54,950 nucleotides of DNA. Origin: a virus. Its lineage: Duplodnaviria; Caudoviricetes. The notes below the pieces were generated by a model that saw only the letters and a program-made list of their open reading frames with translations, did no database searches and was not told where the DNA came from. A program made the position numbers and the translations under genes. The stretch is taken from IMG/VR virus record IMGVR_UViG_3300043424_000638, positions 1 to 54,950 of that record; one strand, written 5' to 3'. Positions 15,975 to 40,445 of the stretch are shown here, in pieces (position 1 is the stretch's first letter; the number at the start of each line of letters is the position of its first letter).

Positions 15975-15995
15975 TAATATACTTATGTCTCATGT

Positions 15996-16018: not shown

Positions 16019-16028
16019 ATGTAAAAAA

Positions 16029-17673: not shown

Positions 17674-17680
17674 ATCAAAA

Positions 17681-22989: not shown

Positions 22990-23040
22990 GAGAAAAATAT
23001 CTCATAAAAAAATAAAAATATCCCGCTTAAAAAATAATTT

Positions 23041-23478
23041 TTAATTAAACCTATCAGGGTTTAATCTTTGGTCTGGATTACTACCTCCAAACTCTTCTTT
23101 CTCTTCAGAATCTTCTTCAGAGTCTTCCATCATTCCCCTAAGTTCATCCCGAAGATTTTCTTTCCAATCCGGAACTTTATCAATAGTATCGAAAACCCAA
23201 TTATAGATAGCTTCAATAGCCCCCGGATTGTCACCGAAAAATTCTCTCAACCCTTGACGATAACCCAAAACTTCAATGAGATTGGTAAGGTCCTGTTCAT
23301 CGTCATAACGAACAGCAGTTTTATCCATATAAACTTCCATCAATTCATATCCATCCATTTCATCCACATCAATACTTTCTTTCATCATCTTTTTCTTAGA
23401 TGACATTTTGGATGACATTTTTGGCTTTTTAACCTTTTTATAGGCTTCTTCGAGAAGTTGCTGATCTTGAGATTTCAT
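23041..23478 (-). CDS. MKSxD-leader acidic protein
   Basis: MKSQDQQLLEEAY; start moved to follow TAAATA. Confidence 0.75.
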   Translation of the reverse strand: MKSQDQQLLEEAYKKVKKPKMSSKMSSKKKMMKESIDVDEMDGYELMEVYMDKTAVRYDDEQDLTNLIEVLGYRQGLREFFGDNPGAIEAIYNWVFDTIDKVPDWKENLRDELRGMMEDSEEDSEEKEEFGGSNPDQRLNPDRFN

Positions 23479-23660
23479 GTAAATATATTTATGGGAGAGT
23501 TGATTCAAAAATATAAAGACTCCATGGAGTATAAGAAATGGAAAGTGGCTCGATTCTTTACTCTCTATTGTGATAGCCCTACAGAACCAAGTGAAATATC
23601 TGAAGAAACCGTTTTAGAATTTGAAAAAATTTTTAGTGGTAATGTCGAAGAAAAATCAGA

Positions 23661-23900
23661 TCAGATATCTAATTGACTTTGCAGTTCTTCTAAAAAAGGA
23701 CCGTAATTGTGGGTGCCGTATTCTAATTTAAGAACAGAAGCTACAGCCCGAGCAAATTCTTTGTCATTTAAATTAGGGTTGTAAGAATCAATAGCTGAAA
23801 TCAATAAGTCTACCAACTTATGACTGTTATCTGATTCTTCTTCTTTTAAAAGAGTTTTTTGATAAGCTTCTTCTAAAAGTTGTTGGTCTTTTGATTTCAT
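23661..23900 (-). CDS. MKSxD-leader protein
   Basis: MKSKDQQLLEEAYQKTLLKE. Confidence 0.75.
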   Translation of the reverse strand: MKSKDQQLLEEAYQKTLLKEEESDNSHKLVDLLISAIDSYNPNLNDKEFARAVASVLKLEYGTHNYGPFLEELQSQLDI

Positions 23901-23910
23901 AAATTAATAT

Positions 23911-24396
23911 TTAACGAAATACTTTTAAGACTTTACAATCTTCAGTATTTTTAGCCAGTATATAACCTTTTCCTAAATTGACATAAGGACCAGTACAACC
24001 TATAGCAATAACAACCTCTCCATAACCTTTAGCATTTCTAAAATCTTTAGTGACATTAACTGATTTATCATTTTTACTGTAAGTCCAAGGCAGTGTATCT
24101 TTTACCCATTTAATAATTTGCCTATCTGTCATGCTATTAAAAGAAGAGCCTAAAACCTGTTCTAATACTTCATTGTCTTCTACAAGAGGTACATCAGAAG
24201 GAAGTACTTTACCTGTTTTTTCCATATATTCCCAATCTTCTAAAGAAACCCCTCTATAACCTATAAAGTTTGGATCATCCGTTTCATCTTTTTGGTTAAT
24301 GAGTTTATTAATACGTTCTCTTTCCTCTTTTGGAATAGGTTCTGCTTTGACTTTACGGTAAGCTTCTTCTAAGAGAACTTGGTCTTTAGACTTCAT
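23911..24396 (-). CDS. MKSxD-leader protein with ADP-ribosyltransferase-like fold
   Basis: Leader plus GYRGVS...SVNVTKD...AKGYG.VVI arrangement. Confidence 0.55.
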   Translation of the reverse strand: MKSKDQVLLEEAYRKVKAEPIPKEERERINKLINQKDETDDPNFIGYRGVSLEDWEYMEKTGKVLPSDVPLVEDNEVLEQVLGSSFNSMTDRQIIKWVKDTLPWTYSKNDKSVNVTKDFRNAKGYGEVVIAIGCTGPYVNLGKGYILAKNTEDCKVLKVFR

Positions 24397-24405
24397 GGGG
24401 ATTAA

Positions 24406-24852
24406 TTAAAGATCTTTAATGGCTGTTTTGTACCAACCCTGAAGTACTGAGTTATCTTTATTCTTTTCTACATCCTTTAAAAGATCAACAATATATTTCG
24501 CATTACTACTAGAAAGATCATCATCACCTACTTTTTTACCATCAATAACAATTTCAAAACCATCATATTGATTCATGCGATAGTCAATCTTTTTGTCTTG
24601 AAATTTAGAAGGATCTATTTCTACTTTAGGGGTTTGTGAAACATAAGAAGTGTAGGGTTCTCTGGAGAGTTCTTCATCGTTCTCTAAACCCGCATTACGT
24701 TCTTGGTTACGAAATTCTCTTTCTTGAGCTTTAATGGAAGCCAAAGAAGGTTCCCGAGAAGGTTTCCAACGAGTTTCTGGATTAGCGTGAGGATGGGCTT
24801 CGTTGACTTTGAGGTAGGCTTGCTCTAAGAGGATTTGATCTTTAGACTTCAT
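24406..24852 (-). CDS. MKSxD-leader protein
   Basis: MKSKDQILLEQAYLKVNE; TAAATA upstream. Confidence 0.75.
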   Translation of the reverse strand: MKSKDQILLEQAYLKVNEAHPHANPETRWKPSREPSLASIKAQEREFRNQERNAGLENDEELSREPYTSYVSQTPKVEIDPSKFQDKKIDYRMNQYDGFEIVIDGKKVGDDDLSSSNAKYIVDLLKDVEKNKDNSVLQGWYKTAIKDL

Positions 24853-25045
24853 ATATTCTTTATTTATTTCAATCTTCTATTTTATTAAAAGATCTTCGAT
24901 TATAGTCTTTAATAGACCGATGCTTTCGGGGAGAAGGAAGAGTAGGTTTCCGAAGAGACTTCAGAAGTTCGTATTGGGATTTAATTTTCAGTTTCATAAC
25001 AAATAAAAGAATAGACGAATTTACCTGTTATGTCCCGCGTAAAGA

Positions 25046-25456
25046 TTAATCTTTAGGGAAAAAATGCTTCAAAGCTTTATCTCTCCCAGCTTCAATACTT
25101 TTTTGTCTTTCTTCTTGAGCGGACTTAGGAACAGAAACTTTATCATCTGTTTTATCCAAAAAGAGTTTACCGTTCTTAGACACTACTTTACGAGCACTGT
25201 CAGGGTACATTTTATCAATAACATACATTCCTTCTTGAACGGGTTTATCGGAATCTACGGAATTACCATCCGAATCTAAAACATAGAACTTACCTAAAAA
25301 GAAACTCTTATAAAGATTTCCTGCTACTCCTTTAGTCCAATAATAATTTCCTGTAAATTTAGGATTAGGAGTTTCATCAAATCCTAATTGAAGTAAAGAG
25401 GGTTCCGAGGTTACTTCTTCTAAAAGACGAGAGTAAAGAGAGTTAAAAGAACTCAT
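25046..25456 (-). CDS. MxSF-leader protein
   Basis: MSSFNSLYSRLLEE. Confidence 0.7.
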   Translation of the reverse strand: MSSFNSLYSRLLEEVTSEPSLLQLGFDETPNPKFTGNYYWTKGVAGNLYKSFFLGKFYVLDSDGNSVDSDKPVQEGMYVIDKMYPDSARKVVSKNGKLFLDKTDDKVSVPKSAQEERQKSIEAGRDKALKHFFPKD

Positions 25457-25459
25457 AAT

Positions 25460-25825
25460 TTAAAAAGGAATTAAAGCGATATGAGTAAAGTCTTGAGGAG
25501 TATCAAAAACATAATAGTCATGACCCGAAGTGTCTGGATAGTTATTGCCTACTGCGGTTCCTTTGGCTTGTATTTGCTTTTGCAAAGAAGGATCTAAATT
25601 GGTTTGATTTAAAAATCTCTTAATAGAGTCTTCATTTTTAAAAGCTACATGAGAGGTTTTAAAACGATTTCCTCCTTCTACTTTACGTTTAAGATTAGGA
25701 ACATCCAATCCTTCTAAGAACATAACGTCTTCAGGACGACCAGAAAAATAACTAAATTCTTGATCGCTAGTTACATTCATGCGCTCATAAGCTTGTTCTA
25801 AAAGGATTTGATCTTGGGATTTCAT
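25460..25825 (-). CDS. MKSxD-leader protein
   Basis: MKSQDQILLEQAY; TAAGTA upstream. Confidence 0.75.
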   Translation of the reverse strand: MKSQDQILLEQAYERMNVTSDQEFSYFSGRPEDVMFLEGLDVPNLKRKVEGGNRFKTSHVAFKNEDSIKRFLNQTNLDPSLQKQIQAKGTAVGNNYPDTSGHDYYVFDTPQDFTHIALIPF

Positions 25826-25863
25826 ATATAGTTTTACTTATCTTAAAGTGGTGGACGGTTAAA

Positions 25864-25948
25864 TTGGTAAGATGAGATTCGAACTCATTATTCCATTTAG
25901 GAGACGGTTTTACAGACCGTTGCGACACTCCAACTTCGCCGCTTACCA
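25864..25948 (-). tRNA. tRNA-Tyr(GUA), U1-A72 and C8; CCA not encoded
   Basis: UGGUAAG/CUUACCA-A; GCGA/UCGC; ACGGU-CUGUAAA-ACCGU; long V-arm; AUGAG-UUCGAAU-CUCAU. Confidence 0.9.
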
Positions 25949-25974
25949 GTATTATACTAGTCCAATTAAAAAAT

Positions 25975-26060
25975 TGGCTCCTCGTCTTGGACTTGAACCA
26001 AGAGTGCCTTTCGGCTCCCGGTTAACAGCCGGGTGTATTTACCAATTCTACTAACGAGGA
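25975..26060 (-). tRNA. tRNA-Asn(GUU) with class-II-like long variable arm
   Basis: UCCUCGU/ACGAGGA-G-CCA; CCCGG-CUGUUAA-CCGGG; V region A-GCC-GAAA-GGC-ACU; CUUGG-UUCAAGU-CCAAG. Confidence 0.92.
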
Positions 26061-26077
26061 ATTTCCTTACAAAGATC

Positions 26078-26131
26078 TTTCCGATTTTGTATTCGTAAGT
26101 CGTCACCTACCTATAGGTTCATCGGGAACCT
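26078..26131 (-). ncRNA. Pseudoknot RNA motif, copy B
   Basis: GGUUC-CCGAU-GAACC UAUAG GUAGGU-GACG-ACUUAC GAA UACAAA AUCGG AAA. Confidence 0.7.
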
Positions 26132-26520
26132 ATTACCTTAATGAACTTTATTTATTCCTCTTCTATTTCTTCGCCAGAAAAAATGGAAGAAAGTTCTTGA
26201 TTAGAAAGAATCCAAGAAGAAATCTCTTCCGAGCAAACTTCTTTTAGTTTATCTAGAGTATCCCCACTCCAACTCTTACCACAACGATACTCCAAAACAA
26301 TCTCTTGAGCTTCGGGACTAGAAAGTTCTGCCAAAGGCATTTCCTCGAGCCAAAACCAACTTAATGCTTGTTCGTCTACTTTATTCATATAATTTTACTT
26401 GTTACGAAAACCTACTTTAATTCCTTTACGAGTTACCTTAAAATAGATGGATTTATTCATGGAGTAAAATATCTAATAGATTTACCAAAACGTCAAGAAA
26501 AAAATTAATAAATAAATTAA

Positions 26521-27342
26521 ATGTCTCTATTAAACATTAAAAGTGGTCGAGTTGTTTTCAAAGATAAAACCAAATTCACAACCTCTTCTGTATATTCTTA
26601 TGATTCGGATGCATTAAATTATATTGCTTCTGTAGAAACAGCAGATGGTCAAACCTTAGAAGAACCTGTTAAAATAGCTTATAACGATTTTATTGTGGGT
26701 TGTAAAGATGATGGTATTTGGAATGCTCTCAAAGCTTCTTGTATTCTAGCTGGAGCCAGGACTTTGAATGGAGCTTTGATTCCTTTAGTTGGAACAGCAC
26801 CTAGTAGTTTCAACTTTGTTTCTGCTGATTATAACAGAAAAACGGGCTTAAAAGGTAATGGTACTAACAAAAGACTCAATACCAATCGGAGAACTAACAC
26901 AGACCCACAAAATTCTAAACATACTTCCATATACGTTACAGAAAGAGAAACTAGTACATCTAAAACTTATATGGGAGGAAGTGATGTTTCTGGCTCTACT
27001 ATAATTAGGTTGGGTACTACTAGTAATGGTGTTGGTTTTAGAATAAATTCTTCTTCTCGATTAAACCTAGCAAACGGAAACGTAAATAACGCCTTTTTAG
27101 GGGCTAGTAGATCCAATGCCACTCAAATTACTTTTCTTGTGCCAGGATTTACTGCTTTTGCCATCTCCAATTCTTCTGCTACTCCAACTAATGAAGCTTT
27201 ACAAGTGTTTAGTTCTGGAACTTCTACCGCATTTTCAATAGCTCGAATTTCCTTTTATTCTATTGGAGAAGCTTTAGATCTAGACAAACTAAACACCAGA
27301 GTCTCCGCTCTTATGACATCTATTAACGGAGCTATCGCTTAA
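26521..27342 (+). CDS. Putative virion structural protein (beta-rich)
   Basis: YI..VE.ADG..LE...F..GCK.DGIW..LKASCILAGARTL.GAL phage family; TAAATA upstream. Confidence 0.65.
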   Translation: MSLLNIKSGRVVFKDKTKFTTSSVYSYDSDALNYIASVETADGQTLEEPVKIAYNDFIVGCKDDGIWNALKASCILAGARTLNGALIPLVGTAPSSFNFVSADYNRKTGLKGNGTNKRLNTNRRTNTDPQNSKHTSIYVTERETSTSKTYMGGSDVSGSTIIRLGTTSNGVGFRINSSSRLNLANGNVNNAFLGASRSNATQITFLVPGFTAFAISNSSATPTNEALQVFSSGTSTAFSIARISFYSIGEALDLDKLNTRVSALMTSINGAIA

Positions 27343-27346
27343 TTTT

Positions 27347-27655
27347 ATGAACTTACAAGAACTCATTCTTCAAAATAAATCCTATGAGGAACTTCAAAGT
27401 CTCGTTTTAATCTTTAATTCTTCTTTAAAAGACATTTTAGAAACTACACAAGAAACTTTTAATAGTCAACATAAAGTGTCTCCGATAGAATTAACCGATG
27501 GTCGTTATATGCTCTGTGCAGACTTGTTGACAGAAATTGGACCTGGAGGACTCTATTCTCAAGGTTTTGGTCTTTTAGATACGGATCTCTTTTCTCAGGT
27601 AGAAGTAGTCTCTCTGGAAGAAATCTCTTCTTTACTTCCATCAACAGAAGAATAA
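27347..27655 (+). CDS. Partner of preceding structural gene
   Basis: P..LTDGRYMLCADLLTE motif; tightly coupled. Confidence 0.6.
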   Translation: MNLQELILQNKSYEELQSLVLIFNSSLKDILETTQETFNSQHKVSPIELTDGRYMLCADLLTEIGPGGLYSQGFGLLDTDLFSQVEVVSLEEISSLLPSTEE

Positions 27656-27661
27656 GATAAA

Positions 27662-28045
27662 TTAATCTTCTTGAAAATAGGCATGGATTACCGGAGTTTC
27701 ATCTTGTCTCCACTTCATCCAAGCTTGAGCAATATTCTTAGGATCATTCCACCAAGCTCTTAAAGGAATCGATTGCCAATGACTATCCCAGACCCAAAGT
27801 TGATTCTTTCCTGGGGGATAAAGATAAGCACAAGTGGCATGACCCCAGTTTGGAGTTTGAATAGAAAGAACTTTAGCTTGTATTCCGCTCTGACGTAAGG
27901 ATTGAGCTACTACAATAGCTTCTGGTAAACAAGCTTTTCTAAAGGATCCAGCCCACTCCGGAACTCCTACAGGTGGGGTTGAAGTACAACCTGCTAAAAA
28001 GAGCCCTAAACAAACACAGAACTTTAATAAAGATTTACTTAACAA
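27662..28045 (-). CDS. Lipoprotein with transglutaminase/papain-like Cys-His-Asp triad
   Basis: Lipobox LAGC; ACLPEA...GHATC...VWD. Confidence 0.65.
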   Translation of the reverse strand: MLSKSLLKFCVCLGLFLAGCTSTPPVGVPEWAGSFRKACLPEAIVVAQSLRQSGIQAKVLSIQTPNWGHATCAYLYPPGKNQLWVWDSHWQSIPLRAWWNDPKNIAQAWMKWRQDETPVIHAYFQED

Positions 28046-28049
28046 TTTT

Positions 28050-28307
28050 TTAATCAGTTAAATTTTCGTCGAGTAAGTCTTGAACGTGCTTACCGAATTG
28101 AAGGCGTAAGAATCGAAGAACAGCAACTTCATGATGTTCATCTCGGTAATTGGGAATCCTTTTTAAAATAAAAGATAAACCAGCTTGTACAGCTTTATCG
28201 ATCTTTTCTTTTTCTTGAGGGTCTAGTTTAATTGGAATAATCTCTGAAGTAGAACTATTAATATTTTTATAAGCTTCTTCTAATAATTGCTGATCCTTGG
28301 ACTTCAT
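28050..28307 (-). CDS. MKSxD-leader protein
   Basis: MKSKDQQLLEEAY; TAAATA upstream. Confidence 0.75.
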   Translation of the reverse strand: MKSKDQQLLEEAYKNINSSTSEIIPIKLDPQEKEKIDKAVQAGLSFILKRIPNYRDEHHEVAVLRFLRLQFGKHVQDLLDENLTD

Positions 28308-29315
28308 ATTATTTTATTTAATCAAATAAGGTCTTTGGAAAAAGTGAGCCCCCAAAGATCTCCTCTGATCTTAATTCCTCTAAAGATTACATTTTGAGTC
28401 TTTTGATCCCGAACATAAAAGGAATCTTCTTGAATTTCAATAAGATGTTTAATTCTTTGAGCTTCTTGTAAAAGAGTCTTAGTAGAGGTATTAGAACAAA
28501 GTTTAACTACGGTATCCTCCATAAAGAACTAAAGGCGTTCTGTTTGAATGTCTTGAATAACTTCCCAAAGAAGAGTGTCTTTAATGTCTTTGAGGTTTTT
28601 ATAGTCTTTAACATTATGATGTCTTCCTCCGTCTTTCATGTTAAAGGCATAAGAATGCATTATAGTCTCTTCACAAGTCATAGGGTCATAATGCTTAGAA
28701 CAGCCATTGTCTCCGGTGAGTTCATAAAGAATATCTTGAAGAGCAGCGGCATAGCCTTCTAGGTAACGTTGTTCGTCTTTCTTGAGGGTTTTCATTCTTT
28801 GGCCTCTTGAAGGATTTCTAACATATTTACACAGATAGAAGCATCGGAACCGTCTTCAAAGAAAGCCGTCTTAGCTCTTCGAATAACTTTAAAAAGCTTA
28901 TCGTATACTCGTTCTAACTTACGAGTATAATCAAATAGTATATCTAACTTAACATCATCGGATAAGGTATTTCTCTTAAACTCTTCCGTTAATCGATCGG
29001 TCTCTAGGGAATCACTCATAAGATTAAAGCCCAATATCGATTCCGAACATCATTAGGATTCCTTTAAGGATAGCTCCAGCTAATCCAATCATACAGACTC
29101 CAAATAAAATCCGAAGCAAAACCATCCATCCCATAACACAGTCTGTTACTTGTTCTTCGTGAGTATATTTGTCTTTCATAAAATCAATATTAGATAAAAA
29201 TATAAAATAGGGCAACCTAAAAGGAAAAGAAAAGCTCCTTATTCTAATACCCTTTTATTTCGGAGCAGACCTGCTTATCTTTAAATACGAGTTTCTCAAG
29301 GGTACAGGTCGATCT

Positions 29316-29579
29316 TTAATTATCTGTCTTTTCACAGATACCATTCAGACAATCGCAAAGAGCTTCTCTCAAAGGGGCTCCAACTACAATCAAAGCTTTG
29401 TGTCTAGACTGCTCTTCGATATGTTGAAGAACCTCTTTAGCCTTTAAGAGTTCTTCTTCTAGTTCTTTATTAATATTATGGAGGTCTGCTACTTGAGCTT
29501 GAAGTACTTCGCAGTCCTAAAACCACTCTTTAATAAGCCTCGAGTTCTCTTCTTTAAATTTCTGAATCTGTTCATCCAT
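29316..29579 (-). pseudogene. Coiled-coil ORF interrupted by one in-frame TAG (29517-29519)
   Basis: MDEQIQKFKEENSRLIKEWF*DCEVLQAQVADLHNINKELEEELL...EKTDN* in a single frame. Confidence 0.6.
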
Positions 29580-29617
29580 TAAAGTAAAGTCTAAATTAAA
29601 TTCAAAGTCTGTATCGC

Positions 29618-29932
29618 TCATTTGTTTGATTTCTTTTGATCTTCTTCTGCAATCCTTTTAAGAACCATTGTAACATAATACTCTGGATGAGACTTGTAAT
29701 GCTGAAACAAAGTCACAAAACGGTTGTATTCTTCTACCCATCTATCGCTGTGTGGATCTAATACATGCATCCTCTCTTCTCTAAAGTGAACACTATCATG
29801 CATGGCTTGGTATGTAGCATCCAGCCTTGCAAGGACTTCTGACCTAAAGTCTTGTGGCAGAGTGTCATCATTCTTAAACATCTCCCAGATCTGTTCACGG
29901 GTGTATCGCCTTTCTTCTTGTTTGTCTTTCAT
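29618..29932 (-). CDS. Hypothetical protein, paralog of the C-terminal half of 52481..53005
   Basis: EMFKND.TL...F.SE.L.RLDATYQAM...DRW.EE.NRFV in both. Confidence 0.7.
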   Translation of the reverse strand: MKDKQEERRYTREQIWEMFKNDDTLPQDFRSEVLARLDATYQAMHDSVHFREERMHVLDPHSDRWVEEYNRFVTLFQHYKSHPEYYVTMVLKRIAEEDQKKSNK

Positions 29933-31997
29933 ATTATTGAGCTGCCTCCAAGTAGATATAAGTAGTCTTATTAAGCTTTCGAAGAATAGCAATTCTGTCC
30001 TTAATCATCTTGCGGAGGATAGGGCTACGTCGTGCTGACCAGCTGTCACAGATAGCAATACGTAGAGCAGTTCCAATGGAGATATGTTCGTTAAGAGTTA
30101 GTTTTTCCATAGTTTTTAAATACGATATGTTATTGAACCCCCAAACCTTGATACTTGAGCATAGAATTAGTCAAGTAACGTTGAATTTGTTCTAGGGTCT
30201 CTAGAGGTTTAATGTCTAGATAGATCTTTCTTTTATCTAGTTCTTTAATATCCGAAGAAGAAGTTAGATCCCAGATAGCTTGTTTCAAAGAAACAGAACA
30301 AGGAATATTCATGAGGTTATTATAGTGTTCCCAGAAGATAGAGTGTATAGAGGTTTTCATAAGAATTAATGAGACTTAGTTAGAGTATAGAGAATAATCA
30401 AAGCAATAAGAGCTCCCAAGACATTAAAGAAGACAGAATGGCAAAAGAAGGTCATAATCAAAAGAACTCCAATAGAAAGTCCTTGAATAGCTCCTACAAA
30501 GAATTCTGGTATTTTCATAAGATTAATGAGCCTTTGCCATCTCGTAAGCCGTATCTACCCCTACTCCTAAGTTCTCTAATTGAGCCACGGTCTTAGAACA
30601 CTTCGCTAACTTCTTATAGGTACTCTTGAGTCCGAGAGGGGCATTTTTGGCTTCTTGAAGTTGGAGAGCCAAGGTCTTGATCAGGTGATTGATTAGGGTT
30701 TGTTTGGTTTCCATGATTAAAAGAATAGAGATTTTGTTTTAAAATAGCCACTCTTTAATGAATTTTAATGATATAGGGGTATTCTTGATACCACCAATTT
30801 AAAACCTTATTTCCCTTTACGGTGACCTGATAGGTCTTACCTACTTCCAATTGACTATAGACTTCATCGCTATTAAACATCTGAAAAGGAATCAAACGAT
30901 TCTGAACTTCCAGGACTCCTTGATCGGTTCCTACCATATAGTGAGAAGAACTTCCGGAATCTACATAGAGCCTTTGAACTTGGATGACCATTTCCTTTTC
31001 CGGCCCGAATCCCTGAACTCCGAAGGTATAGTTTAAACCGATAACAATTCCTACAATTAAAAGAACCGGAGTCAAAGTAGAAACCGAAGCTACCAAGACC
31101 GGATGATCCACAGCCCAATCAAAAAACCTATCGATGAGAGTGGAGAGTGTGGAGAGTGAGAGTTTGTTATTTTTCATATAAGAGAGATATTAGAGATTTT
31201 GTTTTAAAATAGCACTCCAAAAAGAAATTAATTTTCCTTTTGATTAGCCAAATAAAAGGCAATAACCAAAGCTCCAAAGACAATCAGAACCGCGAGACTA
31301 GCTCCATTAAGGAACATTCCCGAGAAGATCTTACCAAGGACTGAAACTACAATATAAAGGTTTTCCATAACAGTTATCAGAATAGGGATTTTGTTTTAAA
31401 ATAACACTCTTTATTTTTAAGAAAATTTAAAGGATTCCTAGGTTCCAACAATAGTGATTAATGTCTTTAGTAGACATTCCCAGATCATTTAATTGACCCC
31501 AGATCTCATCGATCTCTGCTTGATAACTATCATATTCGTATCCTCCCTCTTGAGAAAGGTTCTGAAGCTTGATGGTCTCTACTAAGGTTTCCAGTAAGGT
31601 TTCTTTATTTTTCATAAGAGAATTAAATGAATTGTTTAGCGAGAAAAGCCGCTTTGAGGTTCTGATACCAGGTCGGGTTCTTCTCTTTGAGAATCTCTAA
31701 CGGAGCTTTCCGCTGAGAATAATCCTCGTGTTCTAGGGTCTGAAGATAGTCTTCGACATAATGATTAGCGATGAGTTCTTTCTTGAATGCAGCCATCGTC
31801 ACGGGACCTTTATGCTTAAAACGAGCCAAGAAGGTTCCGATAGGCCAACGACCTTGAGGGTCATTCAGGAACAGGTAAACGCCGGATTTCTCGAACATCT
31901 CTTTAGTGAATGGTGTTTTCATCATGGATCTATATTGGTCTATTTCTTAAAAAAGGTCCCGCCTAAAAGAAAAAAAAAAGATTAAATAAAAGAAAGT

Positions 31998-32216
31998 ATG
32001 AATAAATTTGATCGTCTCGTGAGTGAAATGATGGGTTCTGAAGCTTCTGAAACAGATGTTATTAGAAGTATTCGTCAAGACCTTACAGATTGTTCTTCTA
32101 ACCTAGATAATTTCGCTAGTCAATTTGAAGGATCTAGTCCCAAGGCTATGGCTATTCGTCAAGCTATGATGAAGGTAGACGCAGCTCGTGATATCCTTTT
32201 TAAACTTCAAGACTAA
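31998..32216 (+). CDS. MNKFD-leader protein on opposite strand within early block
   Basis: MNKFDRLVSEMMGSE; TAAATA upstream. Confidence 0.7.
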   Translation: MNKFDRLVSEMMGSEASETDVIRSIRQDLTDCSSNLDNFASQFEGSSPKAMAIRQAMMKVDAARDILFKLQD

Positions 32217-32292
32217 TAGGACCCGAGTAGAATCCTTAAAAAGACAACAAAACGCGTTTTAATCGCGTATAGGATAGCAAGAATCCTAGGAG

Positions 32293-32348
32293 TTTCCGAT
32301 TTTGTAAACGACCAGGTTTACCCAGTCCTAAAGGCTCATCGGGAACCT
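32293..32348 (-). ncRNA. Pseudoknot RNA motif, copy C
   Basis: GGUUC-CCGAU-GAGCC UUUAG GACUGGG-UAAA-CCUGGUC GUU UACAAA AUCGG AAA. Confidence 0.7.
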
Positions 32349-32358
32349 TCTCTAAGAA

Positions 32359-32508
32359 TTAGAAGTAAGCGTTCTTGTAAACCACAGGCCTTCCGGCATT
32401 CAGTTCTAGAGTCTTTTTAAAGTTCGTAAAGTCTGTGGAAGCTTGTTTCATCGTAGAACAAGCCGGCATCATAAGAGCCAAAGCAATAAGGAAAAGAAGG
32501 TTTTTCAT
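32359..32508 (-). CDS. 49-aa putative lipoprotein
   Basis: Own translation MKNLLFLIALALMMPAC-STMKQ... Confidence 0.6.
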   Translation of the reverse strand: MKNLLFLIALALMMPACSTMKQASTDFTNFKKTLELNAGRPVVYKNAYF

Positions 32509-33040
32509 AGGGGTTTATTAAAAGATTCGAGTTACTTGACGGAGCTTTCCGTCTTCGATTTCCCACTTGGTGACTTGGCAATAGTCTGTATCTTCTCCAA
32601 TAGTTTGCCAATTTACCACGAAAGGCTTTTGATCATAAGCGAGGTTAATGATCTTAAAACCCTCATAGTCTTCTCGGTCTTCGAAGTCCATAATGGCTTC
32701 TTGAGCGAGTTCTGAAGACGTATAGATTCCGAGAAGGCTATAACCATCATAGCCTTGATCTCCCATCAGGATGTAGTTGTTAGTATTCATTACAGTAATG
32801 ATATTAGAGGTTGATGGTGGACAGGTCAAAGACTATTTTAGTGAAATAAAGGCAACTCCAGCTTCTTTGTCAACAACACCCAAAGCTCCAACTTTCCAAG
32901 GATATTCTGGAACAACACAGTCAATATCCACATAACCTCCACAATCTCCAAAATCTGGAAAGCAAACATCGACATCTCCGTGTTTTGTTAGCGAATCTTG
33001 TAGTTGTTTAATTAGTTGTGAAGTTTTCATTACAGATATA

Positions 33041-33071
33041 AGAGTAGAGGATTTAGATTAAAAGATCCCGC
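33041..33071 (-). promoter_or_regulatory. Representative early promoter GCGGGA(C/T)-N17-TAnnnT
   Basis: Copies with -35 element near 20481, 22459, 23026, 25038, 31962, 33071, 33552, 34106, 34340, 34881, 35210, 45165; GAGTG/GTGGC variants near 30753, 31217, 31409, 35423. Confidence 0.8.
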
Positions 33072-33722
33072 TTTATTTTTTAATTTCTTTAGAGATTTCT
33101 TTAGCTACGATCTCCAAAGCTTGTTTAAAAAGAACATCTTGACGTTGACCCCAAATATCAGAAAAGTCGTCTCCTTTAGCAGAAACGTCTTTCATAGGAG
33201 GAATGCAGTTATCCCAGATATGTGGAAGAACCTCGTGCTTCATATAATAAAGAATGTCTTCTTTATCGGCTTTAGAGAGTTTAATAGTAGAAAGCTTCTT
33301 CATATTAAAGAGAAGGTTTAAAGGATTCGAAAGCGATAGGATTGCTGTAGTCGATTTCGCGATCCATAAACTGGTGGAGTTGCTGGTCGTCCAGGTACTT
33401 GAGGCCGTTGAGGACTCCGGTGAGGTGCCCGATCATCATGTCTTTGGTGTAGCCCCTCTTCTCGAGGTTCTTGAGGATTGTGGATCCGTAGTCTTGGGTG
33501 TTGTGTTTCATTACAGATATCAGAGTAGAGGGTTTCTTCAAAAGAGTCCCGCTTTTAATTCAATAAATCGTAAAAATAATCCGGTTCTAGGCCTTCTTCA
33601 TAAAGAACTTCTTCCGGATCTTCTCCGTCTTTCACTCGTTGACGCATTTCTTTTTGAAGTTCTTTGGCTTCTTCTAAGGTCAGATCTTGACCTTCCATCA
33701 AGGCTTTTAGGAGATGCATAGG

Positions 33723-33920
33723 TTATTTCTTCTTGGTTACTTTAATAACTCCCCTGAAAAAGCCGACAAGAAAGAAGGTCAAAAGGATCAAAAGGCCAAA
33801 GCCAACCTGAAACAGTGTAGGAGAAAGGACCCACCACCAGGACCAATCAATGTGATTAGTCAGCTTCAACCCTACAAAGAGGACTGTGAGAAGAGTGAGG
33901 CCAGATAGATTGATTTTCAT
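33723..33920 (-). CDS. Two-TM phage membrane protein
   Basis: LFVGLKLT.HIDWSWWWVLSP motif; start moved to MKINL. Confidence 0.7.
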   Translation of the reverse strand: MKINLSGLTLLTVLFVGLKLTNHIDWSWWWVLSPTLFQVGFGLLILLTFFLVGFFRGVIKVTKKK

Positions 33921-34900
33921 ATGATTAGATTTAGAATTCGTTGCTGAGCAAGAGAGCAATGGCTGCAACCACAAACAAGATGGTGATAAGAAGTCCTTCA
34001 CCAGTCAGGAACATGCCTGAGAAGATCTTTCCGATTACTTGAAGTGCTAGCGTGATGTCAATCATAACAAATAAGAGTATGGAGAATTTTTTAAAAAGAG
34101 TCCCGCTTTATTTTAAAGAAAGAGCGATCTTGAGACCTTTTTCAAAGTTCTGGACTTTCTTAATAGTGACTCCAGCACTCCGAAGGAAGGTCATCTCTTC
34201 GTCGTAAAGGTCTTGAGGAGTCTTAATATTTCGGAAATAGTCTTGGCATTCCGGGCAATCACACGAATTCTTTTTAGCCTTAGAAGTTTTCTTTTTCATA
34301 ACAGATCAAAGATTAGAGGATTCTTTAAAAGAAGGCCCGCTCTAAAGGTTATTTTTTAGATAATTTTTAGCCTCTACAAACAAAGCCTGAGCTCGATCCT
34401 CAAAGACATAGGTATAACCCTCTTCACTAACTCCTTCCATATTCGGAATACAAACGTCTTCTTGAAAAGCTGGAATGATCGTAAAGGCGATCAAATCATC
34501 TAGCTTTTCTATTTGTTCTTGAGATAGCTTGGTCATAACAGATTAAGGTCTTAGGCTTTGCCGGCGAAGTAAACCTTACCAGGAACGGTCTCAGAAGGAG
34601 CCTGAGTAAAATCCAGGATGATAGAGGCTTTCTCAGTCTTAACCGCCTTAGGGGCTTTCTTAGAACCCTTTGAAACCCTCTTCAAGGTATTGTAGACAGC
34701 CCGGTAATGGGCCTTGTTCTTAACCAGAGAGGCGGTAGGGTGGTTGGTGTCATGAATCACCGCCAGGATGTCCTTAACGGTGTAATGAGGATTAGTGGTG
34801 TAGAGGTCTTTAACGACTTGGCTGAGTGTGGTGTTGTTTGTCATGGTTTATATATTGGCGGATTTTTAAGAAAAGGTCCCGAAAAAAAAGAAATATTTTT

Positions 34901-35170
34901 TTATTGTTGTTCAATGGTCACGGTTCCAGAAACCCTTACGAGTTTCCCGTCTACAAAGAAGAACCAACCATCAGTCTCCTTTTCGGAATTAACAAAGCTA
35001 TTAACTACCTGATAAGTCTTGACGGCTTTGTCCCCGGACCAAACGGTAACCACGTAATTGCCTGTAGAGAACCCTTCTGCCAGTTTTCCCATATTGTTCT
35101 TAAAGGCTCCACATCCGGTTAGGAAGAGAGAAGAGATACCCATAACAGAGAGAATTAATGTTTTTTTCAT
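34901..35170 (-). CDS. Early lipoprotein
   Basis: Signal peptide with lipobox LTGC. Confidence 0.7.
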   Translation of the reverse strand: MKKTLILSVMGISSLFLTGCGAFKNNMGKLAEGFSTGNYVVTVWSGDKAVKTYQVVNSFVNSEKETDGWFFFVDGKLVRVSGTVTIEQQ

Positions 35171-35423
35171 AACAGATAAGAGAATAGAGATTTTGTTTTA
35201 AAATGTCCCGACTTTTCTTTAACGATTTTTAAGACGAATAAAAACGTCTTGATTCTGAAGCATAATCTCTCCCAAGATTACGGAACAATACTCGTACCAT
35301 TGTTCCAGAGTCCATTCTCCGCTAGTGACCTTATCGAGATTCTCCTGATACTGAGGAGCAATTTGTTGGATGTATTCGTTCATAACAGATCCAAGATTAG
35401 AGAAACCTTTTAAATAAGGCCAC

Positions 35424-35455
35424 AAAAAAAGGATTCCGATTAAAGAATCCTTTTC
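35424..35455 (-). terminator. Rho-independent terminator separating the late effector block from the early block
   Basis: AAAAGGATTC-TTTAATCG-GAATCC followed by T7. Confidence 0.7.
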
Positions 35456-35480
35456 TTAGAAGGTTATTAGAGAATCTTTC

Positions 35481-35948
35481 TTAGCCTAGACGAGTTCTTA
35501 GTTGTTGGTCTCTACTCATCTTATTAGAGAATCCATATTCATCGGTTTCAGAATCCAAAAGCTCTACACCAACAATCTTAGAAGAAGATTCGTCTGAATA
35601 GGTATAAGGTTTTCCTAAGAAGTATTTCTTAGCTACTTCTAAAGGAGTTTGGTCTTCTAAGAACTTATTAGAGATATTAAAACTTGTTTTATAAGAATCT
35701 CCATTTTGAAGTTTGATTTTAAGATCTACAGTAATGTAATCTTTTTCTTCTTGGACTTCATCTAATTCTTCTACTTCTACTTTATATTGTTGATCTTTTA
35801 AATCTCTTACTATTTCGTCTTTTTCTTCTTTAGAATGGGCAATAAATTTTTGGGGTTTTTGAAAAGCAGAAAAAGCGGTAATCTCAAACTTTTTAGATTC
35901 TTTTTCTTCGTTCATGATTTCTTTATAGAGAGTTTCGAATTTGTTCAT
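35481..35948 (-). CDS. MNKFE-leader acidic protein
   Basis: MNKFETLYKEIMNEE. Confidence 0.7.
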   Translation of the reverse strand: MNKFETLYKEIMNEEKESKKFEITAFSAFQKPQKFIAHSKEEKDEIVRDLKDQQYKVEVEELDEVQEEKDYITVDLKIKLQNGDSYKTSFNISNKFLEDQTPLEVAKKYFLGKPYTYSDESSSKIVGVELLDSETDEYGFSNKMSRDQQLRTRLG

Positions 35949-36395
35949 ATACTTTATTTATAGATTCTTTAAAAACTTTTTGGAACTTCTTTATTATCGA
36001 AAACTTTGTCTACTGTAGCTAATTTTCTGTGAGGATAAAACAAAGCTCCTTTTTCATCTTTGGGATTTAGTTCTGTAATTTCTGTACTTAAAATTTCCAA
36101 AAGATTTAAAGTATTTTTAGAAGAAAAGCTATTTTCCAAAGAAAACAAAAAATCTTGTTTTGTTATTTTAAAAGAATCTTTCTTTAATTCTTTTATATAT
36201 TTTCTCATTTTCCAATAATTCTTTATTTTTCTTACAATTTTAAACATATTTCTTTATTTTTCTTACTATTTCTCTATTTCTTATCTATCTATACTACATT
36301 CTATCTACATATTTTCATATTTCAATATGTGTATATGTTCTTTTTTTCCTTTTTATTTTCTGGATTTCATTTTAAATTCCCTATTTTTATTCTTT

Positions 36396-37226
36396 TTAAG
36401 GATAATATCCCCACTCCATAATAGAGTCTCCATTAGTAAAAATATTCTTAACCTTAGTACGTAATGCTACTACTTTAAACTTTCCCTGTAAAGCTCCTTC
36501 TCCATGATCTTGAGCATATTTTTTATTAGTAGTAACCCAATCTCCCGGTTGAATCACCTTACCTAAAAAAGAAGAATTTTCTTTTTCTGCTTCTTTCATC
36601 TTATCCTGATACACCGAAAGAGGAATAGCTCTATATATAAAAGTTACATATTCCGGCTTTCCTTTCCAACCTAAAACCTTTCTTAATTCTGTTAATCCTT
36701 CTTCTGTTTCATACCATTGAGGCATACTATAAACATCTTGGGGATAGACTCCATTTAAAGTTAAATCATATCCCGGAGCGCCAGACTCTCTATCCGGAGC
36801 TTGATGTTCTCCTCTATAATCTAAACTCTCTTCTATTCCTTTAATAAAATGCCTAGAAGGATCTACGGGATATTGAGAACAGAGGCTTTGATACTCTTCC
36901 GGTTTATATCTCTTTTTAACTATATATTGAACTTTACTCTGGATATATTCCTCATTATGGTCTTGAGTAAAGAATTGTTTAATAGTCGGATCTATCTTTC
37001 CTTGAGGAGTTTCAATCCAAGTGTGCATAAACTTTCCTTCGACTCCTTTAATCTTAATAAATCCTTCTATCACTTGAAAGTCTTTCTTTCCTTGATCTAA
37101 TAATTTCTTAGTTAAGAGTTCTGCGGCATACATACAGGAATCTACCGAATAGGGATTAAAGTTCTGAGGAAGGCTTACATCTAAGTCTTCTTTTAATATT
37201 TTTTCTATTAGTAAATCGAATTTCAT
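36396..37226 (-). CDS. MKFD-leader two-domain protein: transglutaminase-like (C-H-D) plus ADP-ribosyltransferase-like domain
   Basis: SCMYAA...HTWIE...IDPT; internal IEE linker; IYRAIP...GDWVT...YA..HG...EWGY. Confidence 0.65.
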   Translation of the reverse strand: MKFDLLIEKILKEDLDVSLPQNFNPYSVDSCMYAAELLTKKLLDQGKKDFQVIEGFIKIKGVEGKFMHTWIETPQGKIDPTIKQFFTQDHNEEYIQSKVQYIVKKRYKPEEYQSLCSQYPVDPSRHFIKGIEESLDYRGEHQAPDRESGAPGYDLTLNGVYPQDVYSMPQWYETEEGLTELRKVLGWKGKPEYVTFIYRAIPLSVYQDKMKEAEKENSSFLGKVIQPGDWVTTNKKYAQDHGEGALQGKFKVVALRTKVKNIFTNGDSIMEWGYYP

Positions 37227-37678
37227 TTTAATATTTCTAAATTATAGACAGCAAAGGCTTCATTAGATCTATCATAGAGAGCATCTATTCCTAAGGAAGT
37301 CATAATAAGAGGAAACTCATCTCTCCCTAGGAAGTCTTCTATTTTTCTCCCAGAATACCTCAAATTCTTATAGTCTTTCCAATCTTCCAGATCTCTTAAA
37401 TCTAAGACTCTTTGAATAGGATTTAAGGAAAATTCTAAAACGATTCCTCCTTCTTCGTCTCCGGAGAAATCCGCATAATTCTTTTGAGCTAGGTCTCTAT
37501 CCGGGGTAACATAAAAGGCTTTGCCAAAATAACCTCTTTCACATTTTTCTAAATTTAAACCTTTTTCTTTAATGTCTTGAGCGGATTCCAGATCGGTTCC
37601 ATGATAGGCCTTTAAGGGATAGGAGAATTTTATTTCTTCTTCTTTTAATATCTTTTCTATTAAGGAATCGAATTTCAT
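37223..37678 (-). CDS. MKFD-leader ADP-ribosyltransferase (H-Y-E clade)
   Basis: AYHGT...GYFGKAFYVT...A..NYA...NEAFAVYN. Confidence 0.8.
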   Translation of the reverse strand: MKFDSLIEKILKEEEIKFSYPLKAYHGTDLESAQDIKEKGLNLEKCERGYFGKAFYVTPDRDLAQKNYADFSGDEEGGIVLEFSLNPIQRVLDLRDLEDWKDYKNLRYSGRKIEDFLGRDEFPLIMTSLGIDALYDRSNEAFAVYNLEILK

Positions 37679-38013
37679 ATTAATTTTATCCAGACTCCCC
37701 GATCTGTTTCTGTTACTTCAAAGTTCTCATCTCCCTTAATCTTATCAAAGACTTTATACATATTGTCATTTAATATTCTACCATGACTGAAGAAAGCGGG
37801 TTTGTTTAATTGTTGAATGAGTTCTTTAATCTTTTGAGGTGCATACCCTTTTCCTTGATATTTCTTTTTAATTTGAATATGCATTTCCAAATACTCTTCT
37901 CCGTTTAATACCTTTTCTTTAAAAGATATCTCTCCTTCCGGGAAGGTAGCTCTCTTAAACTCAAAGCCGTCTTTGATGTTTAAAATTTCATTTACCAGAT
38001 CATCGAATTTCAT
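37675..38013 (-). CDS. MKFD-leader GNAT-like acetyltransferase
   Basis: IQIKKKYQGKGYA AcCoA motif A; start moved to MKFDDLVNEIL. Confidence 0.65.
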   Translation of the reverse strand: MKFDDLVNEILNIKDGFEFKRATFPEGEISFKEKVLNGEEYLEMHIQIKKKYQGKGYAPQKIKELIQQLNKPAFFSHGRILNDNMYKVFDKIKGDENFEVTETDRGVWIKLI

Positions 38014-38014
38014 A

Positions 38015-38341
38015 TTAATTTTTACTAAAGAAGTAGTGAATATCTTTCTCGGGATCATAAGCTACGTAGATATTAGGTTCTCCGGGATAGAAGTAATATT
38101 CCCAATTTTCTTTAAGATCTAAGTCAAAAGGTTTATTAATTAAAGACAAGAATTCTTCTCTATTAAGAAAGAGATTAGGATTTTCTTCCGCTTGTTCTCT
38201 GAAGGATTCTTCTTGTTCGGCGAAATCATTGACATCCCTAAAGGTTCTTAGAACACATTCTCCCGTATCTACGTCAAAGAGATTAGTACAATTTCCAACG
38301 TAAGGAGAGGATTCTAAGTAAAAGTTTTTAAAGGATTTCAT
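38015..38341 (-). CDS. Acidic protein with T4 capsid-targeting-like leader
   Basis: MKSFKNFYLE; TAATTA upstream. Confidence 0.7.
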   Translation of the reverse strand: MKSFKNFYLESSPYVGNCTNLFDVDTGECVLRTFRDVNDFAEQEESFREQAEENPNLFLNREEFLSLINKPFDLDLKENWEYYFYPGEPNIYVAYDPEKDIHYFFSKN

Positions 38342-38364
38342 TTTTTAATAATTATCTTTAATAT

Positions 38365-38871
38365 ATGTTATTTGATTCTTTAGTCTCTTCTATTTTAAAA
38401 GAAAGTCCTGATGTAGTCGCGGATGTTTATGATCGAACCGTTAACGATTATAGTCACTTTATTTTCTTTATAGGAGACGAAAACGGATCTTTTCTTAAGA
38501 AGAGTAATCCTTCTCCTTGGGGGACGGAAACTCATTCTTTTATAGTAGCTAATCTCAAAGAAGAAGGAATTATCATTCCTCAAAGTCCTTACTCTGTATT
38601 AGATTCCTCTCTTTGGACAGGAGAAGGTCGTGAACTTTTAGGTAATCCTAGAAGAATTTCTACCAAACATTCCGGAATCATCATGCCTCAACAATCCGAT
38701 ATGAATGGAACTTATATATCTTTTTGGTATTACAATGAGTATCCTAAGAATTGTCCGGCTTTAAAACAACTCTTTAATTACACCAAAAAGAACTTTCCTG
38801 GTCCTTACTTTATAGATAAAGCTGCTCCCCTTGCCGCGGAAGACGTTCGTTCTACGGTAGTTCCTCTTTAA
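38365..38871 (+). CDS. MxFD-leader protein
   Basis: MLFDSLVSSILKE-SPD. Confidence 0.7.
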   Translation: MLFDSLVSSILKESPDVVADVYDRTVNDYSHFIFFIGDENGSFLKKSNPSPWGTETHSFIVANLKEEGIIIPQSPYSVLDSSLWTGEGRELLGNPRRISTKHSGIIMPQQSDMNGTYISFWYYNEYPKNCPALKQLFNYTKKNFPGPYFIDKAAPLAAEDVRSTVVPL

Positions 38872-39335
38872 AGAATTTTAAAAGCGTAAGTGTAACCGTC
38901 TTCGGATTTTACTATTTGAAATCCTAATTTTTGATAAAAGGAAACCAAATCCTTAATAGAAGACTTAGTTTTTCCTGTAGAGATCTCTCCCACATTGAGA
39001 GCGACCAGAGATCCAGAAGGGTACTTACTAAAAATCTTTTTAAGAATCAAAGAACCTAATCCCTTTCCTCTTTGTTGAGGTAAAACTTTAATAGTATTAA
39101 CCCAAACATAATCAAAACGATCTTTTAATTTTAAAGTCTTTAAGAACTTTTGAATCAAGGGATACTCTTCAAAGAGGGAAAGAATATATTTCAGATTAGT
39201 TTTCTTTTCCTCATCCACCTCGAGAGTAGCTACCTCTTTACGCCCTATAAAGACCGCTTGTCGAGAAATATCCAAAGTAATAGAAGATTCTGTAAAGTTT
39301 TCTTCTATTTGTTGAATGAGGGAATCAAAACGCAT
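38868..39335 (-). CDS. MxFD-leader GNAT acetyltransferase
   Basis: VLPQQRGKGLGS and LVSFYQKLGF motifs; start moved to MRFDSLIQQIEE. Confidence 0.85.
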   Translation of the reverse strand: MRFDSLIQQIEENFTESSITLDISRQAVFIGRKEVATLEVDEEKKTNLKYILSLFEEYPLIQKFLKTLKLKDRFDYVWVNTIKVLPQQRGKGLGSLILKKIFSKYPSGSLVALNVGEISTGKTKSSIKDLVSFYQKLGFQIVKSEDGYTYAFKIL

Positions 39336-39600
39336 TAAAGCTTTTCCAGTCTTTGATCTTAGCCAGCCAAAGCTTTTTAACCGCAATACGAGCTGTAGTT
39401 CTAGAATTTTCTGGAACCTCTTTCATAATCATTTCAGTAATGTTTTCAATTGCTTCGTCTAAAGCCATTTCGCAAGTCATTCCAATATCTGAGTAAAATT
39501 CAAAGAAATTATCTACAGTAGGTCTTTCCATAGGCTCCATATTGTCTACGTATTCCTCTTCGGAAACAATTTGTTGATAGGTTTGATCAAATTTATTCAT
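39325..39600 (-). CDS. MNKFD-leader acidic protein
   Basis: MNKFDQTYQQIVSEE; TAAATA upstream. Confidence 0.7.
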   Translation of the reverse strand: MNKFDQTYQQIVSEEEYVDNMEPMERPTVDNFFEFYSDIGMTCEMALDEAIENITEMIMKEVPENSRTTARIAVKKLWLAKIKDWKSFNAF

Positions 39601-40415: not shown

Positions 40416-40445
40416 ATCTTTTTTAAGATAGAGAGAATTTTAAAA

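Follow-up and report, generated by a model that had tools for sequence, protein, structure and literature searches.

Twenty-three open reading frames (ORFs) of an uncultured phage, known from the IMG/VR virus record IMGVR_UViG_3300043424_000638, begin with one of three short N-terminal leaders that recur on otherwise dissimilar proteins. The entire record, 54,950 bp long, classed as linear and about 25% complete, was analyzed and is called the window here. The leaders are real, protein-level, modular and interchangeable features, and one type is anchored both to the capsid-targeting sequence (CTS) of phage T4 and to the detection of similarly tagged proteins in cyanophage virions. It is likely that they represent an expanded, three-flavour variant of the T4 capsid-targeting system, in which targeting is followed by trimming by a protease, and the phage probably carries in its head, and delivers into the host, a large set of proteins that changes fast. 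An earlier note on this DNA had proposed such a system with about 25 leader-bearing cargoes; all the ORF starts that it named translate as it stated and the leaders were borne out, but the count comes to 23.

Leader A, MKS[KQ]DQxLLE[EQ]AY, starts seven ORFs, all on the minus strand. Leader B, M(x)KFDxLxxxILxE, starts 14, one of them at a GTG codon, and leader C starts two, as MKSFKNFYLE and MNFKDFYLTE (Table 1). The nucleotidyltransferase ORF starting at 20516, previously listed as related to leader A, begins MKLDSDTKKLQSLYEQV and is only loosely A-like. The families were recovered blind when residues 2–17 of the 119 ORFs of at least 45 aa were compared all against all, with residues 26–41 as the control: 56 of 7021 N-terminal pairs scored 24 or more (BLOSUM62, 12-mers), versus 0 of 7021 pairs of internal segments. 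The two largest blind clusters in the window were B (10 members) and A (7 members). As a positive control, the same N-terminal clustering of T4 placed IPI, IPII and IPIII, internal proteins of that phage, together.

Conservation of leader A was followed in 23 strict A leaders drawn from five contigs, namely the window, its complete relative G001, and G002, G005 and G006. Column entropy was 0 at residues 1–3, 5, 8–10 and 12–13, and Leu8 and Glu10 were invariant in 23 of 23, as a matter of sequence motif alone. That similarity stops after the leader, as the earlier note had it, was confirmed: entropy rises from 0 to about 3 bits (above 2.6) from residue 14 on, with one exception, a half-conserved Ile or Val at residue 16. 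The strict A regular expression itself fixes the invariant residues, and the informative features are the codon spread and the sharp boundary. Each invariant residue is encoded by two to five synonymous codons (five for Leu8), and the DNA upstream of A leaders is not conserved past an AT-rich box. Conservation, and with it selection, thus acts on the leaders at the protein level. The hydrophobic-x-Glu that had been noticed at the leader end (Glu at residues 9–15) is present in all 23 leader ORFs versus 21 of 103 others (p = 2e-13). What follows the leader differs from gene to gene. When 60 leader proteins of the window and of four related contigs were compared by BLASTP after trimming of their first 20 aa, they fell into 50 clusters, 43 of which were singletons; by this comparison the cargoes are unrelated in sequence. 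As a DNA pattern, strict leader A was found in 25 stretches on 16 IMG/VR contigs. The A and B regular expressions had no match in T4, P-SSM2 or S-CREM2, and these two leader types appear so far only in this uncultured lineage.

The first 10 residues of the T4 CTS suffice for targeting, with residues 4 and 7 weighing most in targeting and residues 8 and 10 in processing, and the CTS has been described as perhaps a general means for T4-like phages to load varied proteins (PMC9026906; here and below, PMC numbers stand for excerpts of the papers unless stated otherwise). In the T4 record, IPII and IPIII start MKTYQEFIAE/A (a slash marks the known or presumed cut) and IPI starts MKTFKEF. Leader C, MKSFKNFYLE/S, fits this sequence position by position, with aromatic residues at 4 and 7 and Glu10. 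Leader A, MKSKDQQLLE/EAY, has 10 residues up to its invariant Glu, with Leu at 8, and leader B, MKFDSLIEKILKE/E, is 3–4 residues longer, with F at 3 or 4 and L, I or Y at 6–8 in a helix of ambiguous register. Like the gp21-cleaved CTS proteins of T4 (IPI, IPII, IPIII and Alt), the window proteins have a short leader at their very N-terminus and are otherwise unrelated in sequence, A and C sharing with the CTS its length of 10 residues, Glu10 and a hydrophobic residue 8. The setting is also alike, with a T4-superfamily genome, a gp21-type protease in a relative, and cargoes that include small basic proteins and an ADP-ribosyltransferase (ART). T4, however, has three such proteins plus the CTS-like gp61.1 and a single leader type, whereas the 55-kb fragment has 23, known from sequence alone, and three leader types. 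T4 gp61.1 (NC_000866 18966–19130, 54 aa, hypothetical) starts MKTFKEFIKE, which is CTS-like, and clusters with IPI–III in the blind test.

Leaders are swapped on the same cargo. The ART cargo of the window (37223–37678) has 81 database homologues that are 49–96% identical to the window copy. Sorted by N-terminus, the 82 sequences comprise 43 with A-like leaders (MKNKDQILLENLY...), 27 with C-type leaders (for example MTFKEYFLKE... and MISFKQFVLES...), three with B leaders and nine with truncated or other N-termini. Mapped on a maximum-likelihood tree of 73 cargo-domain rows from a quick search, the leader type has to change 15 times, and branches with Shimodaira-Hasegawa-like approximate likelihood ratio test (SH-aLRT) values of at least 95 force four of these changes; examples of sister pairs there are P0076, with an A leader, and P0081, with a C leader, and likewise P0088 (A) beside P0091 (C). 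The second half of the 276-aa protein at 36396–37226, a domain marked by the motif DYRGEH, behaves in a similar way. In relatives it occurs alone behind the B leaders MLFNDILKQIEE and MKFDCLVQKILKEE, behind the C-like MNFKNIYELCLE, and behind MRSKDQILLESLYSKILKED, an A/B hybrid, and in two more distant homologues (P0010 and P0011) it has no leader. Gene 115 of P-SSM2 starts MKSFKQFLEEAYNKV, intermediate between C and A.

Links to the phage head come from G001, a record of 217,182 bp that has direct terminal repeats and a completeness score of 100%. Its gene set includes a T4-type DNA polymerase, clamp loader, UvsX, terminase, sheath, tube, baseplate wedge and major head protein, and it encodes a head maturation (prohead) protease of the gp21 type (Peptidase_S77/PF03420, 88.8 bits; phrog_207, E = 2.7e-54). 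All three leader types are present. A 75-aa B-leader protein of G001 (42319–42546) is 58% identical over 36 residues to residues 54–88 of the major head protein, and its LVE/D aligns on the head protein's LRE/G. By its position LRE/G is presumably the gp21 site of the G001 head protein; we infer this rather than read it from homology because a BLASTP alignment of T4 gp23 with the G001 head protein is too gappy around the T4 cleavage site. In G001 a homing endonuclease and a 48-aa ORF follow the head gene, and the C-like gene MKFKEYFQKVVLKES comes next downstream, while a small basic B-leader protein adjoins the neck and portal genes. A separate observation in G001 is a 185-aa Lys-rich protein (102111–102668, minus strand) near the head genes, with a late-type box and two internal A-like motifs, SKDQLIEQA and SKDQDMLAEAY, that fall below significance with the leader A profile.

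Evidence from particles is available for the cyanophage S-CREM2, in which 52 virion proteins were identified by mass spectrometry (Table 3 of PMC10665884). Several non-structural proteins detected in the virion have starts of the T4 type, including a SAM (S-adenosylmethionine) hydrolase (MKDFDSFLEE), a kinase ((V)KRFDAFLTE), a cytidylyltransferase (MKNFSSFLTE), ORF13 (MKDLHSFLTE) and ORF136 (MQTFSMFFSE). A C-type regular expression was written from T4 IPIII and the C leaders of the window, not from S-CREM2, and was applied to 214 ORF calls, to which 50 of the 52 listed virion proteins were matched. All four matching ORFs were virion-detected, versus 46 of 210 others (Fisher p = 0.0027); a fifth case, missed by the ORF caller, is the kinase, whose annotated start is GTG. 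The same tag is found on the cytidylyltransferases of P-SSM2 (MKSFSQFLTE) and G001 (MKTFRQFFLES). The S-CREM2 authors note that cyanophage virions frequently contain kinases and cytidylyltransferases and suggest carriage within the particle, and the text consulted names no targeting peptide (PMC10665884). The main text of PMC3037559, supplements excluded, has no passage on 'cytidyl' or 'internal protein'. The S-CREM2 virion enzymes resemble the window proteins in their T4-like, C-type leader, and the window nucleotidyltransferase (20516–21286), an assignment made in the earlier note and upheld here, is homologous to virion-detected gp156 (30% identity, E = 2e-29). They differ in that the A and B regular expressions match nothing in S-CREM2, a comparison made by regular expression only. 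Also in S-CREM2, the virion-detected ORF12 (OR473000 7704–10313, minus strand), annotated as a 'CRISPR-Cas9 nuclease', has a CTS-like stretch, RFASFMAE/A, about 19 residues after its annotated start; the true start may be further downstream.

The leader genes also share an upstream signal with structural genes. Among upstream hexamers, TAAATA shows the strongest enrichment (14-fold in the window, 15-fold in G001), and it lies mostly 5–6 nt before the ATG. The earlier note had the leader genes or their operons mostly following such a motif; enrichment is clear, since 10 of 22 leader genes have TAA[AG]TA at a distance of 4–10 nt upstream of the ATG, versus 11 of 103 others (Fisher one-sided p = 4e-4), but 'mostly' is too strong. 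In G001 the box precedes 11 of 15 leader genes versus 69 of 332 genes overall, and 9 of 18 genes with structural PHROGs versus 3 of 17 DNA-metabolism genes, two of these three being endonucleases. Many late genes with the same box carry no leader. TAA[AG]TA resembles the T4 late promoter TATAAATA, and the same motif stands upstream of genes 22, 24 and alt in the T4 record. A scan of 35000–40500 for sigma-70-type promoters and terminators gave 14 promoter-like sites versus 17.4 expected, which is chance level. In about one fifth of the genes of the window and G001 the box lies 5–6 nt before the ATG with no Shine-Dalgarno sequence, whereas in T4 and S-CREM2 the spacing is about 17–30 nt; late mRNAs of this lineage may be leaderless.

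The cargoes themselves have few recognizable functions. Three ART-like domains had been claimed, and they fared differently. The cargo at 37223–37678 is confirmed by its fold: the AlphaFold2 (AF2) model has a predicted local distance difference test score (pLDDT) of 88 and a predicted template-modelling score (pTM) of 0.82, with the leader as a detached low-confidence helix at residues 3–11, and the Foldseek matches listed comprise chains with an ART fold, from PARP10, PARP15, exotoxin A and diphtheria toxin, and one chain of the cyanophage A4 pre-ejectosome, all at probabilities of 0.8–1.0 (best E = 2.2e-3). Of the H-Y-E signature of the PARP/diphtheria toxin clade, H26 and Y50/Y56 are invariant in 33 sequences, and no invariant Glu was seen. 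By tblastn against cultured phages this cargo had only two weak matches, both in a MuF-like fusion protein of Microbacterium phages. The DYRGEH domain, the C-terminal half of 36396–37226, models well (pLDDT 81–95), and a wide structure search aligned many rows of ART-fold chains with it at a best Z of 5.0, a range (below 8) in which matches can be due to chance; a Foldseek search with the 276-aa model returned nothing at E ≤ 0.001. The A-leader cargo at 23911–24396, the third of the ART-like domains, is a lead from language-model features, and tblastn against cultured phages gave no match. In the N-terminal half of 36396–37226, the candidate transglutaminase-like Cys-His-Asp domain consists of a motif found by eye (SCMY..., HTW..., D) in a region modelled at pLDDT below 50 (residues 47–137) with no Pfam match at E ≤ 0.5.

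One of two proposed GNAT acetyltransferases was upheld, that at 38868–39335 (PF13508, E = 2.8e-6, 28.1 bits versus a cut-off of 27; phrog_3810 acetyltransferase, E = 3.6e-4), while that at 37675–38013 is weak (E = 0.036). The remaining cargoes had no family match in Pfam or PHROGs. The description of the cargoes as host-modifying or anti-defence enzymes is backed by a few of them, most having no recognizable family. Two small, very basic cargoes of the window (18541–18804 and 18962–19180) appear similar in kind to the T4 internal proteins, and G006 (start 6007) has the cargo type of the former too, as does G001, where a B leader precedes it (118013–118291).

On the capsid-targeting reading, each leader would form an N-terminal helix of 10–14 residues that docks the newly made protein on the scaffolding core of the prohead, where the gp21-type prohead protease would cut it after the hydrophobic-x-Glu. 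The mature cargo would stay in the head and enter the host with the DNA. The cargoes so delivered would be small basic proteins of a DNA-binding type, at least one ART, an acetyltransferase and many proteins with no recognized function, and the leader would be a portable module, with cargo genes gained, lost and re-tagged quickly so that relatives carry different kits. We infer core docking, cleavage, packaging and injection for this phage, as well as that A and B do the same job as C.

Several points weigh against this reading. The tagged proteins of this phage, and any protein with an A or B leader, are known from sequence alone. Leader A lacks aromatics at 4 and 7 (K or Q at 4, 7 variable), and its invariant Glu-Ala-Tyr at 11–13 comes after the presumed cut, a placement not accounted for by a simple propeptide. 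The hydrophobic-x-Glu is a loose motif, as its presence in other genes indicates, and 12 of the 22 leader genes have no late-type box, including the entire B cluster at 36.4–39.6 kb. Neither a protease (PF03420) nor a scaffold or head gene was found in the window, which is a fragment of about 25% of a genome, and since PF03420 was silent in every control genome too, its silence in the window carries no information. A and B have no experimental anchor, and leader hidden Markov models run on T4 and P-SSM2 gave two marginal matches in P-SSM2 (E = 0.0028 and 0.0098). The authors of the S-CREM2 study caution that virion detections may include abundant contaminants (PMC10665884). The earlier note had expected leader profiles to hit scaffold or core proteins, and this failed: the A and B profiles match neither the scaffold (107582–108547) nor the protease or head protein of G001, the B profile being built from only four sequences. 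In G001, T4 and P-SSM2, the A profile was significant only at the four known N-termini of A genes in G001, with a weak match in PSSM2_115. Modular head loading of the T4 CTS type is supported by several independent but indirect lines, and the scaffold or core matches that went with the proposal were not found.

Some of these same points could be turned to another account, in which the leaders are docking tags for a destination other than the prohead, such as a degron for a Lon-like ATP-dependent protease of the phage itself, a chaperone handle or a helix that binds a host target. The invariant EAY past the presumed cut, the missing targeting residues 4 and 7 and the lack of any leader-like match in scaffold and core proteins would all agree with it, as would the 829-aa ATP-dependent protease encoded by G001 (phrog_4871). 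It is nevertheless unlikely. A and B have repeatedly taken the place of the T4-like C on one cargo, proteins with the C motif tend to be those detected in virions, the B leader ends where the head protein is probably cleaved when the two are aligned, and structural genes have the late-type boxes as well. We also judge it quite improbable that the tagged proteins are loaded in the prohead as assembly or DNA-condensing parts that are then degraded or retained, with no 'arsenal' at all. One confident ART fold and one GNAT above the Pfam cut-off speak against such a role, few leader genes are among the 35 of 123 called window genes shared with G001, and the fast turnover of cargoes (43 singletons in 50 clusters) fits conflict genes better. 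This alternative does draw on the small size and high isoelectric point (pI 10–11.7) of several cargoes (18541–18804, 18962–19180), on the lack of an enzyme signature in most of them, and on the head assembly defects of T4 IPIII mutants (PMC9026906).

Two further explanations take the leader peptide to have no such role. The repeat could be a nucleic-acid element, either a recombination cassette or a 5' coding sequence for leaderless late mRNAs, the peptide being functionless. T4-type phages shuffle genes at regulatory cassettes, and a box only 5–6 nt before the ATG with no Shine-Dalgarno sequence would allow for leaderless mRNAs; the invariant residues, however, are spelled in two to five synonymous codons, the upstream DNA is unconserved past the AT-rich box, and many boxed late genes have no leader, all of which makes this highly improbable. 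It is harder still to credit that the ORFs are ordinary diverged paralogues with slow-evolving N-termini, although the tandem arrays at 23041–25825 and 35481–39600 do resemble local duplications. Similarity ends within one residue, cargoes run from 57 to 276 aa with 43 of 50 clusters singletons, different folds (ART versus GNAT) are already seen among them, and one cargo family bears three different leaders, while the homologues P0010 and P0011 bear none.

If the leaders are T4-type head-loading signals, the existence of three of them may be explained by an 'address code', in which they would serve different core partners, copy-number classes or ejection orders in one T4-type head, and in which the Glu-Ala-Tyr of A would be a second signal that the mature protein keeps, perhaps serving ejection or refolding in the host. 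This is a speculative refinement to which we give a modest chance, and the presence of several leader types in one genome, G001, would favour it; were it true, a cargo that exchanged its C leader for A or B would be delivered in another amount and at another time.

Conserved addresses on interchangeable cargo are also known from the N-terminal trafficking modules of polymorphic toxins and the cargo-loading peptides of encapsulins, which differ in machinery and location, encapsulin tags being usually C-terminal. Closer to the present case, it is already in print that the internal proteins of T-even phages are a diverse set with the CTS as their only common feature (PMC3012670). The two cases have in common a conserved leader, a hypervariable cargo and a reading as an arms-race kit; the published one, in contrast, concerns close enterobacterial relatives of T4 and the T4-type leader only (PMC3012670). 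The giant phages phiKZ and SPN3US likewise have many head-internal proteins processed by a prohead protease after Glu (PMC5694885, PMC7411985, PMC10052503). Their propeptides are longer and do not amount to a single shared short leader, and their lineage is unrelated. A literature search, supplements excluded, found no paper linking the CTS with cyanophages or aquatic T4-like phages, save one review containing both words, and among the papers listed none contained MKTYQEFIAE, LLEEAY or KDQILLE. What is new here is the scale (23 genes in a quarter genome), the two divergent leader forms, the swapping of leaders on one cargo, and the enrichment test on a virion proteome. If the capsid-targeting reading is true, T4 capsid targeting would be an old, widespread and expandable platform, here with more than 20 cargoes and three interchangeable tags, and a short tag would predict which kinases, cytidylyltransferases, SAM hydrolases and similar enzymes turn up, as they recurrently do, in purified T4-like cyanophage particles. 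The tag would also be a cheap marker for proteins of the first seconds of infection, among which anti-defence and take-over functions are expected, and would provide new variants for packaging foreign proteins into phage heads.

The phage of the window is placed by its genes in the T4 superfamily. A 767-aa protein (40446–42749) has a C-terminal half 68% identical to cyanomyovirus virion structural proteins, and homologues in G001 exist for 35 of 123 called genes. No cultured phage has a major head protein more than about 34% identical to that of G001, the best being those of cyanomyoviruses, and the lineage is therefore uncultured and deep-branching. Megablast of 23041–39600 against cultured phages gave no match. 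The G+C content of the window is about 29–40%. Short contigs that match parts of the window at 100% identity occur in a metatranscriptome run from freshwater, and because of this the phage is called aquatic rather than marine; the run was seen as contigs only, its library may include DNA, and the parts not covered carry no meaning. Synteny with G001 is found at window positions 22630, 25460 and 28322, which correspond to 15964, 14378 and 13291 (window 22630–28522 versus G001 13291–16341). Between these flanks the window has five A-leader genes and one B-leader gene, whereas G001 has one A-leader gene, and window 22630–28522 appears as a hyperplastic island of tagged genes.

Table 1. Leader-bearing ORFs of the window and one loosely similar ORF. 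On the minus strand the start codon is at the higher coordinate.
Positions	Strand	Leader or gene	Length (aa)	Remarks
3–320	-	B		ORF runs off window start; same leader in G001 (35154) and G005 (29524)
6020–6193	+	B (possible)	57	GTG start; TAAATA box 5 nt upstream
7467–8036	-	A	189	Internal A-like repeat LKEAYQQILES
11632–11931	-	B	99	
18080–18523	-	C (MNFKDFYLTE)	147	Basic cargo, pI 9.5
18541–18804	-	B; MNSFNSLINFLLE	87	Small, basic, Cys-rich cargo, pI 10.2
18962–19180	-	B	72	Very basic cargo, pI 11.7
20516–21286	+	Loosely A-like; nucleotidyltransferase		Homologue of virion-detected S-CREM2 gp156
23041–23478	-	A	145	Acidic cargo; no family recognized in profile searches
23661–23900	-	A	79	RNA-library contig 100% identical over 23712–23999
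23911–24396	-	A	161	YRG motif in cargo; rifampin-ART/PARP-like by language-model features only (lead)
24406–24852	-	A	148	Cargo common to G005_2414, also leader A
25046–25456	-	B	136	
25460–25825	-	A	121	Orthologue G001 14378–14668, also leader A
28050–28307	-	A	85	
31998–32216	+	B	72	
35481–35948	-	B	155	
36396–37226	-	B	276	Two domains: candidate Cys/His/Asp-motif N-half; DYRGEH...GDSIMEWGY C-half (phrog_2579)
37223–37678	-	B; PARP-like ART	151	
37675–38013	-	B	112	Weak GNAT hint, E = 0.036
38015–38341	-	C (MKSFKNFYLE)	108	Closest leader to T4 CTS; RNA-library contig 100% identical over 38054–38231
38365–38871	+	B	168	Cargo: no Protein Atlas row ≥0.9
38868–39335	-	B; GNAT acetyltransferase	155	Acetyltransf_7
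39325–39600	-	B	91	

Other genes of the window were noted in passing. A full-length transfer-messenger RNA (tmRNA) gene lies among leader-bearing genes at 6868–7322 on the minus strand (RF00023, 103.5 bits versus a gathering score of 47). Three tRNA genes, also on the minus strand and unusually long at 85–93 nt, were found for Ile(tat) at 17582–17674, Tyr(gta) at 25864–25948 and Asn(gtt) at 25975–26060, the latter two immediately preceding, on its upstream side, the leader A gene with its start at 25825. Genes for ribosomal protein S21 (PF01165, E = 2.5e-11) and Hsp20 occupy 3746–3961 and 4014–4493, respectively, on the minus strand. Together, S21, Hsp20, the tmRNA and the tRNAs suggest that the phage tunes translation. 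At 54089–54580 on the plus strand is Tad3, an inhibitor of type I Thoeris defence (PF25185, E = 2.5e-38), which lacks a leader. The phage therefore has at least one counter-defence gene whose product is untagged and made inside the cell. Finally, one contig of the RNA library has a joint at 29234–29324, within the ORF-free stretch 29216–29617, where it goes back 91 letters and carries 19 extra ones, and this may be a repeat or a strain variant.

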